Virus record (IMG/VR): IMGVR_UViG_3300037189_023236
Reading direction: 5' to 3' (one strand)
DNA length: 64,000 nt
Origin: a virus
How positions within the stretch are numbered: position 1 is the stretch's first letter; every line of letters starts with the position of its first letter. Below, one piece after another: positions 16,702-17,631 of the stretch. A model generated the notes under the pieces. That model was not told the DNA's origin, searched no databases, and saw only the letters and a program-made list of their open reading frames with translations. The position numbers were made by a program, and so were the translations under genes.

Positions 16702-17631
16702 TCAGGCAAGATGTGTTGCAAACGCTTGCTGCTCCGCCGGCGTCTTAAAGAACTGCTCCGGAAGAAAGAAGCCGTCGCGAGCGCCTTTGCGCGACGACGC
16801 GATGTCCAACCAATTCGCGTGCAGATACCGTATGAACGCCTGTGAGGCCCGTAAATCGCCTTTTGCGCCTTCACCGGCTGCGCGCCAAATACGCCACAGA
16901 AAGTTTTGCGGTGCTTGAAAATCTATTACCCGGGGATCCTGCGTTTTCCAACAACGCAGGACCGTACTGCAGCGCAAGTCACGGCCGCGATGCAATAGTT
17001 TTGTAGTGTCAGACACTCTGTTCTGAATTTTTGGCGTCAGACCGAGAAACAAATTCAGTTTAATGGCGTTGTCAGCCCGACGCCTGTCAACGTACCACCG
17101 CGGATCGACTATTGTGGTCAGTAGCATTGTCGCATCTTTGTGCGATATGCCGCCGATAAAATTTAACCGCTTGTATAGCGGATGCGTCTCGTAAAATATG
17201 CGCGACGTGTTGTCAGCTAAATCCCGGCCGAGGCGGTGAAGTGAAAGAAGTGCGTAAATTGAATATTCTACGCTAGTCATCTCGTGCCAGCCGCCGCAGG
17301 CCAGCGGAAACCAAGATTCGCGCATCCGGAAAAGCGTCATTACCGGATCATTCAGTTCTGACATAGCTGCGCAAACGTTTGGCCCAGCTAGGCATATAGT
17401 TGCCAGCTCTTTTCCGCGTTTTCGTAAATAAAGGTTGGCGATTAACTCAGCGTTTTGCGCTACGCCAAGAATACGTATGTTTGTGTTTAGCCGGCTTATC
17501 AAATTAGATAGCAGAAACGTGTCTAACGTCTGCTGAGAGTTTTCTGGCGGATTTATACCCGCGGCGTACCAGATATTCCCGTCGGGCGCTGTGTGTAATT
17601 TAATAGCAGTTTCATCGGCAAGGTGAAACAT
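16702..17631 (-). CDS. degenerate IS110-transposase / Nop-fold protein
   Basis: HPLYKRLNFIGGISHKDATMLLTTIVDPRWY...KLNLFLGLTP matches the Transposase_20/Nop helix-hairpin-helix pattern (L..IPGIG...A..LL.EI.D..RF...L..Y.GL.P); C-terminal RASQAFIRYLHANW helix; DEDD residues not evident. Confidence 0.55.
   Translation of the reverse strand: MFHLADETAIKLHTAPDGNIWYAAGINPPENSQQTLDTFLLSNLISRLNTNIRILGVAQNAELIANLYLRKRGKELATICLAGPNVCAAMSELNDPVMTLFRMRESWFPLACGGWHEMTSVEYSIYALLSLHRLGRDLADNTSRIFYETHPLYKRLNFIGGISHKDATMLLTTIVDPRWYVDRRRADNAIKLNLFLGLTPKIQNRVSDTTKLLHRGRDLRCSTVLRCWKTQDPRVIDFQAPQNFLWRIWRAAGEGAKGDLRASQAFIRYLHANWLDIASSRKGARDGFFLPEQFFKTPAEQQAFATHLA

Follow-up and report, generated by a model that had tools for sequence, protein, structure and literature searches.

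Proteins of the TIGR-Tas and IS110 groups are known as RNA-guided nucleases, repressors and recombinases that are tied to their own guide RNAs. What role, then, could such a protein have in a phage in which its gene lies beside no guide array and its nuclease residues appear to be lost? The question is raised by a gene on the minus strand at 16702..17631 of a 64,000-nucleotide stretch of the viral record IMGVR_UViG_3300037189_023236 (IMG/VR), the whole of which is referred to here as the window. The gene was identified from the list of open reading frames (ORFs; ATG start, stop codon at 16702-16704), encodes 309 aa and is designated TasR-like, arrayless and nuclease-dead. Our answer, which we hold with as much doubt as confidence, is that its product is a domesticated, non-catalytic nucleic-acid binder of the Tas family that belongs to an SbcCD-helicase recombination/replication module of the phage.

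Fold and kinship of the TasR-like protein

The AlphaFold2 model of the 309-aa protein (predicted local distance difference test, pLDDT, 90.1; predicted template modelling score, pTM, 0.88) contains two domains. The N-terminal domain (aa 1-112; 17296..17631, minus strand) is RuvC/RNase H-like, judging from its b-b-b-a-b-a-b-a order and from its fold matches. The C-terminal domain (aa 113-309; 16705..17295, minus strand) is Nop/Transposase_20-like, as indicated by a match to TasH, its secondary structure and ESM-Atlas neighbours bearing PF02371, and is basic (isoelectric point, pI, 9.95). It includes a helix-hairpin-helix (HhH)-like core (aa 146-206; 17014..17196, minus strand) with the pattern HP..L.FI.G....A..LL..I.DPRWYV......L..FLGL.P. 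This core was delimited by its match to the model NF052498 (TIGR_Tas_endo); no other stretch of the protein resembles Tas and IS110 models at the level of sequence. Between the RuvC-like and C-terminal parts, where TasR carries a coiled coil, the model has only two helices of 14 and 9 residues (aa 120-149). The motifs from which a preliminary description of the sequence had proposed an IS110/Nop-like protein were present in the translation: NIRILG...ICLAGPN...NDP in the N-terminal half, HPLYKRLNFIGGIS...LLTTIVDPRWYV...KLNLFLGLTP in the C-terminal half, and a late C-terminal helix, ASQAFIRYLHANWLD.

In the Foldseek search against the PDB, TIGR-TasR (9MTY) came first (E 3.7e-3, probability 1.0), followed only by the IS110-family recombinases ISCro4 (9T56) and IS621 (8WT6/8WT9). 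These four structures, TasR included, had probabilities of 0.84-1.0, and the rest were below 0.5. VIA-align, run against 48,161 representative chains, aligned 230 residues of TasR (9mty_B) with model residues 8-309 at Z 10.5; over both domains, IS621 reached Z 8.0 and ISCro4 Z 6.5. Among the fold matches listed, only TasR, IS621 and ISCro4 covered both domains, and the proposed kinship with the IS110/Nop superfamily thus holds over the whole chain. The Nop domain of TasH (21kl_A) aligned with model residues 125-308 at Z 8.0. Residues 1-112 were matched by RuvX, RuvC, poxvirus resolvase, the RuvC domains of Cas12/TnpB and the YqgF domains of Spt6/Tex at Z 5.4-6.7 (RuvX 6.7; poxvirus and phage RuvC resolvases 5.9-6.2; Spt6/Tex YqgF 6.3-6.7). 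The RuvC-like strand and helix order that had been read from the N-terminal half is therefore borne out by RNase H folds of the RuvX/RuvC/YqgF type (Z 6-6.7). The more specific suggestion of a TasA-like or Nop5-like protein stood with respect to the IS110/Nop kinship and not with respect to the nearest relative, which is TasR and then IS110. TasA was absent from the fold lists, and so was Nop5, among listed matches that are dominated by those to the N-domain. A Foldseek search of BFVD with the same model returned no significant match.

Sequence profiles were compared using the window protein and an alignment of 147 diverse family members (mean column identity 23%), to which all counts of members below refer. 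NF052498 was the sole NCBIfam model matching the window protein (residues 146-206, 17.7 bits, E 0.0027; curated cut-off 100 bits). It was matched by 90 of the 147 relatives at E<=0.1, with a best E of 2.1e-9 and all scores far under the cut-off; such scores are read as indicating homology, not equivalog membership. The NCBIfam IS110 model (NF033542) was matched weakly by two members and Pfam Transposase_20 (PF02371) by four (best E 0.028), the window protein not being among the latter. No match to the window protein was found in Pfam, PHROGs or PADLOC. Its ESM-Atlas neighbours were small, mostly viral proteins, 13-28% of which carried PF02371. With hhalign, the family profile aligned with SpTasH of Salicola phage CGphi29 in the core only (residues 150-211, E 0.018), and with the IS4321 transposase over residues 159-203 without significance. 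When the PDB was searched by sequence, two family profiles gave only chance integrin matches or none. One homologue, AF-A0A3M1VGY1, is itself a row of Data S1 of Faure et al. (2025; PMC12045711), the structure-derived alignment behind the Tas profile, and its coiled-coil columns are gapped there. Because the fold ranking and the counts for NF052498, set against those for the IS110 model and PF02371, both favour Tas, the 309-aa protein is a diverged Tas-family member with TasR architecture, nearer to Tas than to IS110.

The family is large. A word-based search retrieved 303 homologues, all unnamed and of about 310 aa, and an exhaustive profile search yielded 864 clusters at 50% identity (401 with E <= 1e-30), almost all of about 310 aa. 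The ORF is thus real and the family conserved far beyond chance. Strongly conserved columns were W21, R53, G56, N60, P84, GGWH113-116, Y126, HP150-151, DPRW176-179, G197, W228, F244, R247, W274 and F289, and the family is under strong purifying selection. The distribution is viral and environmental: a search of 185,579 prokaryote genomes gave a single match, on a 13-kb contig of a metagenome-assembled genome, and tblastn of the TasR-like protein, two distant relatives and the neighbouring RAMP protein (see below) against 50,697 GenBank phage records gave no match. IMG/VR contigs carrying the gene reached 235 kb; several were judged complete, and two have direct terminal repeats. The nearest TerL among GenBank phages, that of Salmonella phage Arash, was 32% identical. 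Since GenBank phages gave no match and the closest TerL is this distant, the phage lineage with the TasR-like gene is uncultured.

Catalytic positions and the search for a guide RNA

In the RuvC-like domain, catalytic residues would be expected where strand 1 ends, on strand 4/5 and in the helix after it; these positions were placed by strand topology and conservation. No conserved acidic column was found in residues 1-112 among the 147 members, in which no N-domain column exceeded 71% D/E; the most acidic were column 6 (71%) and column 92 (62%). The N-domain columns conserved to at least 90% (W21, R53, G56, N60 and P84) include no acidic residue. At column 15, 65 sequences have D and 47 have A; at column 80, 85 have E and 40 have Q; at column 95, 73 have D and 33 have N. 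All three positions are acidic in only 18 members, and the window protein carries A15 and C80, which agrees with the preliminary statement that the acidic catalytic set is not recognisable. Conserved in the N-domain instead are K11, H13, R53 and N60, with basic residues lying on the core strands (K/R11 86%, R53 90%). A conserved IS110 serine had likewise been reported as missing. S207, two turns after GL.P and near the IS110 Ser-Gly position, is invariant in the close subfamily and occurs in 33 of the 147 members, so that there is no such serine family-wide. By these alignments the four acidic nuclease residues have been lost, and the IS110 serine has either been lost or was never present.

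Characterized TasR proteins differ from the phage protein in part. TaTasR (PDB 9MTY; PMC12045711), the best whole-chain match, shares a RuvC-like domain followed by a Nop domain and a similar size, with sequence similarity limited to about 60 residues. Four acidic residues are conserved in the RuvC site of TaTasR, which also dimerises through a coiled-coil domain and has a neighbouring array of 36-nt tigRNA units; none of these three features was found for the phage protein. PateTasR and CsTasR (10.64898/2026.09.09.750476) share a dead RuvC domain in which basic or hydrophobic residues replace the acidic set; unlike the phage protein, these two, from bacteria of the candidate phyla radiation, retain the coiled coil and stem-loop arrays. 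In PateTasR and CsTasR the inactive sites are occupied by arginines, to which the conserved K/R11 and R53 may, by analogy, be likened. The same preprint describes a divergent clade of compact TasR proteins, arrayless and without a coiled coil, in dense viral genomes with no room for an array (10.64898/2026.09.09.750476). This clade is probably the present phage family.

To look for a guide array, we used TRF and Rfam together with a scan for short words that repeat at a fixed period of 24-130 nt. No dual-repeat TIGR-like array was detected in the window, in the complete 204.6-kb relative genome G002 or in 99 homologue loci (1.7 Mb), and the preliminary remark that the short flanks leave no room for such an array could thus be extended. 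Periodic matches occurred only at 27, 60 and 63 nt, multiples of 3 that are compatible with coding repeats. The periodic-word scan did recover the 36-nt TIGR array at 15365-15640 by tasH in Salicola phage CGphi29, which served as a positive control. Within the TasR-like gene there was no excess synonymous-site conservation and no embedded element; where the mean was 0.40, the highest value, 0.55, was reached only at the 3' end, next to the following start codon.

An intergenic, structured RNA candidate of about 400 nt was observed on the minus strand at 60090-60492 (window 60022-60492). It is closed by a helix of 24-27 bp (arms 60090-60116 / 60466-60492) and folds with a minimum free energy of -225.7 kcal/mol (z -10.8); after it comes a perfect hairpin of 19 bp that resembles a terminator (60022-60072). 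For 60090-60492 there was no match in Rfam. Eight homologues were found in phage contigs of about 200 kb, and 43 of the 124 predicted pairs show compensatory changes among them. A covariance model of one of its sub-domains detected it in the window's subclade only and in none of nine more distant genomes with the TasR-like gene. The candidate was considered as a trans-encoded RNA of the TasR-like protein, and no link was supported, given that it was not detected in these nine gene-carrying genomes.

The locus and its neighbouring genes

The window is phage DNA of 64 kb, about 94% coding and mostly on one strand, with genes for TerL, DNA polymerase, primase, a DnaB-like helicase and a UvsX-like recombinase, CobS/CobT-like genes and two tRNAs. 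Upstream of the TasR-like gene, all on the minus strand, lie an SbcC/Rad50-like ATPase of 708 aa with a CxxC hook (17638..19764; Pfam SMC_N/AAA_23, PHROG 77, NCBIfam Rad50) and an SbcD/Mre11-like phosphoesterase (19751..20869; Pfam Metallophos, NCBIfam Mre11), whose gene overlaps that of SbcC by 14 nt. Downstream are an ORF of 164 aa (16198..16692, minus strand) and, after it, a superfamily 2 (SF2) DNA helicase of the ResIII/DEAD + Helicase_C type (14670..16256, minus strand; Pfam, PHROG 16). The TasR-like gene starts 6 nt beyond the SbcC-like stop codon and ends 9 nt ahead of the 164-aa ORF.

Gene neighbourhoods of relatives were taken from IMG/VR loci. Using the close-family profile, the order SbcD - SbcC - TasR-like - 164-aa ORF - SF2 helicase - 246-aa ORF - DnaB - primase - polymerase was found in 43 of 43 loci. 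A distant subfamily profile added 21 contigs, with 25-39% identity to the window protein, in which the order was SbcD...SbcC - TasR-like - SF2 helicase...DnaB - primase - polymerase. SbcC stood directly before the TasR-like gene in all 64 viral contigs examined, the TasR-like start codon lying -4 to +30 nt from the SbcC stop in the relatives' loci, and the gene is tightly co-expressed with the Rad50-like ATPase. Each of three complete phage genomes of about 205 kb had exactly one copy. Since the gene is single-copy, has fixed synteny and leaves no room for ends, it is a vertically inherited core gene and not mobile. The statement in the preliminary description that it is not in a mobile element was made from the short flanks, and the copy number in the three complete genomes and the constant neighbours in the 64 contigs now agree with it. 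The setting is the core SbcCD-helicase-replisome operon of uncultured phages of about 150-235 kb.

The 246-aa ORF (13964-14704, minus strand), located between the SF2 and DnaB-like helicases, retains its position across most of the lineage. It had no Pfam, PHROG, NCBIfam or PADLOC match and may encode a helicase loader or another replisome accessory.

The 164-aa ORF encodes a minimal Cas7/Csm3-like RAMP, as indicated by its AlphaFold2 model, Foldseek and VIA-align. The model (pLDDT 89.9) shows a b-a-b-b-a-b core with a glycine-rich loop, GKYKGFSPF...YG, ahead of the last strand. Foldseek gave 129 matches at E<=0.001, including Csm3 (6xn3_F, E 5.8e-7), and VIA-align gave Z 13.0 with 9g9a_G over 147 of 164 residues, all of the 50 matches listed being CRISPR RAMPs. 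The modelled protein therefore has the ferredoxin-like Cas7/Csm3 RAMP fold. The gene overlaps that of the SF2 helicase by 59 nt and adjoins the TasR-like gene in most lineages. Neither a CRISPR array nor a further cas gene was seen, and the RAMP is therefore not considered part of a CRISPR-Cas system. A conserved DRDP loop was also observed at residues 30-34 of the RAMP, roughly at what we take to be the site of the catalytic Asp of Csm3.

In some relatives, other genes stand in place of the RAMP gene, or ahead of it, after the TasR-like gene. Three tandem paralogous ORFs of about 110 aa and a metallophosphoesterase occur at L038 10891-11917, and 1-1.7 kb of ORFs without family matches at L011 10911-12648 and L005 10924-11989. 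Pfam searches of the inserts between the TasR-like and RAMP genes (L011, L038) returned nothing informative except the metallophosphoesterase.

Possible functions and other features of the window

Taken with the loss of the catalytic residues and the position in the operon, the kinship is consistent with domestication, a reading on which we are evenly divided. A protein of the Tas/IS110 superfamily would have lost its acidic residues along with the long coiled coil and any array of the TIGR type; its gene is translationally coupled to that of the SbcC/Rad50-like protein. The protein would then act without cutting or transposing, as a basic, nucleic-acid-binding accessory factor. Nucleic-acid binding is likely because the C-terminal domain has a pI of 9.95 and the neighbouring gene encodes a Cas7-like RAMP. 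The protein might bring or hold RNA, an RNA-DNA hybrid or branched DNA for recombination-dependent replication by Mre11-Rad50 and the helicase, with SbcCD as its presumed partner and the RAMP often serving as a co-factor.

Several known systems offer parallels to such a role. The closest analogy in working principle would be Nop5/Nop56/58, for which a published comparison describes an inactive RuvC-like N-domain and a Nop domain used as a pure RNA-binding scaffold. Nop5 differs in having a coiled coil and in working with fibrillarin and L7Ae, of which no counterpart was seen in the phage, although no search was aimed at these partners. Tex/Spt6 combines an inactive YqgF (RuvC-like) domain with following nucleic-acid-binding helices of the HhH type; this may serve as an analogy only, there being no whole-chain match. 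The archaeal Mre11-Rad50-NurA-HerA operon, also an analogy only, places an RNase H-fold protein and a helicase beside Mre11-Rad50, but NurA is an active nuclease of a different fold variant, unlike the phage protein.

Several observations weigh against domestication into a non-catalytic binder within this module. The tight synteny with SbcC means co-expression and is no proof of physical or functional coupling. The RAMP does not lie beside the TasR-like gene in L038, L039, L116-L118, L146, L152, L162 and L163; because it is missing in about nine lineages, it is a frequent partner and not an obligatory one. Stem-loop tigRNAs, which have almost no sequence conservation, would escape the periodic-word scan. 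Finally, a remodelled active site composed of H13, H116, D/E122, H150 and D176 is conceivable from the conserved residues.

The main rival is that the protein is still an RNA-guided DNA binder, which would act like the dead TasR and TasA repressors with a guide encoded outside any recognisable array. We regard this as unlikely, though deserving serious attention. The guide could come from one or a few stem-loop tigRNA-like units within the coding sequence or from an RNA encoded elsewhere, possibly bound together with the RAMP. In keeping with such a function, the Nop core motifs are the best conserved and are the part that matches the Tas models, and the neighbouring gene has a predicted RNA-binding RAMP fold. 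Dead TasR proteins bind DNA via tigRNAs and repress transcription, and dead TasR and TasA act as RNA-guided repressors (10.64898/2026.09.09.750476). Stem-loop tigRNAs occur at flexible positions, even within the tas coding sequence, and the preprint leaves open an alternative guide source for the arrayless viral clade (10.64898/2026.09.09.750476). The structured RNA with covariation is encoded in the same phage subclade as well. Several results speak against a retained guide. In a complete genome no periodic array was found, with the positive control working, and the gene has no excess conservation at synonymous sites. The coiled coil by which TasR dimerises and grips the guide-target duplex appears, in the model, to be cut down to the two short helices. 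The structured RNA lies 43-62 kb off and was undetected in the nine distant genomes that carry the gene.

In a version to which we give rather little credence, the arrayless Tas protein and the minimal Cas7-like RAMP would be RNA-handling subunits of the phage Mre11-Rad50/helicase machine, with a housekeeping role outside defence. Their task might be to make R-loops or RNA-DNA hybrids, or to keep these stable, and thereby to start or direct recombination-dependent replication; alternatively, they might hold a dedicated phage RNA that would guide the nuclease complex.

Three further readings are less likely. We find it very improbable that the protein is an active, structure-specific nuclease or resolvase whose site has been remodelled away from DEDD and which acts on junctions or hairpins together with SbcCD. 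Such an enzyme would agree with the RuvC/RuvX-like N-domain fold, with the lack of a recognised Holliday-junction resolvase among the scanned ORFs of the window, and with the conserved histidine and acidic residues named above, which could in principle form a site. The phage family shares the RNase H-like fold with RuvC/RuvX resolvases but does not conserve their invariant acidic metal ligands; there is no invariant acidic residue, and the expected positions vary among D, A, H, C and Q even between close relatives. The two solved dead TasR proteins likewise have basic residues in the pocket (10.64898/2026.09.09.750476).

The second is a decoy in anti-defence or competition between phages, in which Tas and Cas7 would soak up tigRNAs or crRNAs belonging to hosts or to competing phages; we find it just as hard to credit. 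TIGR-Tas systems are mostly phage-borne and are thought to be active in competition between mobile elements (PMC12045711), and a guide-less, nuclease-less Tas next to a lone Cas7-like protein has the possible look of a decoy. Counter-defence genes, however, are usually variable and located in accessory regions, whereas the present gene keeps one position, between SbcC and the replicative helicases, in lineages with no more than 25-30% identity to one another, and no PADLOC model matches. The third, a remnant of an IS110-family insertion sequence as suggested by the overall architecture and the weak PF02371 and NF033542 matches, is refuted as far as present data go by the single copy, the 6- and 9-nt flanks, the identical neighbours in 64 contigs, the lack of a DEDD set and of a family-wide serine, and the greater nearness to Tas in fold and profile. 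The bridge-RNA recombinases IS621 and ISCro4 share the RuvC-like and Transposase_20/Nop-like domains and the GL.P / HhH-like motif with the phage protein, which differs from them also in lacking a bridge RNA region and ends.

On the preferred reading of a domesticated, non-catalytic binder, a large branch of the Tas family (864 clusters) would have dropped guide array, nuclease and coiled coil and become fixed in an end-processing/replication operon of big environmental phages. The family offers a testable case for the question posed in 2026, whether viral Tas proteins without arrays draw on some other source of RNA or have become guide-independent, and its likely partners are defined (SbcCD, RAMP and the SF2 helicase). 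If an RNA partner exists, parts of RNA-guided systems have been reused in core phage DNA metabolism; if none exists, this would be an exaptation into a plain nucleic-acid-binding subunit, as for Nop5. The coupling of an arrayless Tas gene to SbcC and its Cas7-like neighbour were not found in the literature searched, nor in the preprint (10.64898/2026.09.09.750476).

Other genes of the window were noted as well. Adjacent genes at 41381-46360 (minus strand) encode a CobT-like protein (1146 aa, with a C-terminal match only) and a CobS/MoxR-type AAA+ protein (511 aa), a pair known from cyanophages and pelagiphages. A heptose-phosphate kinase/adenylyltransferase-like gene (23629-25149, minus strand) and a nucleotide-sugar epimerase gene (35235-36167, minus strand) may serve sugar-nucleotide metabolism for modification of DNA or of the surface. 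A long run of imperfect GGCGTN repeats with periods of 6/12/18/24 nt and strongly positive GC skew extends over 62700-63950. These repeats are located inside a large minus-strand ORF (62107-63999) that leaves the window and encodes a low-complexity repeat protein.

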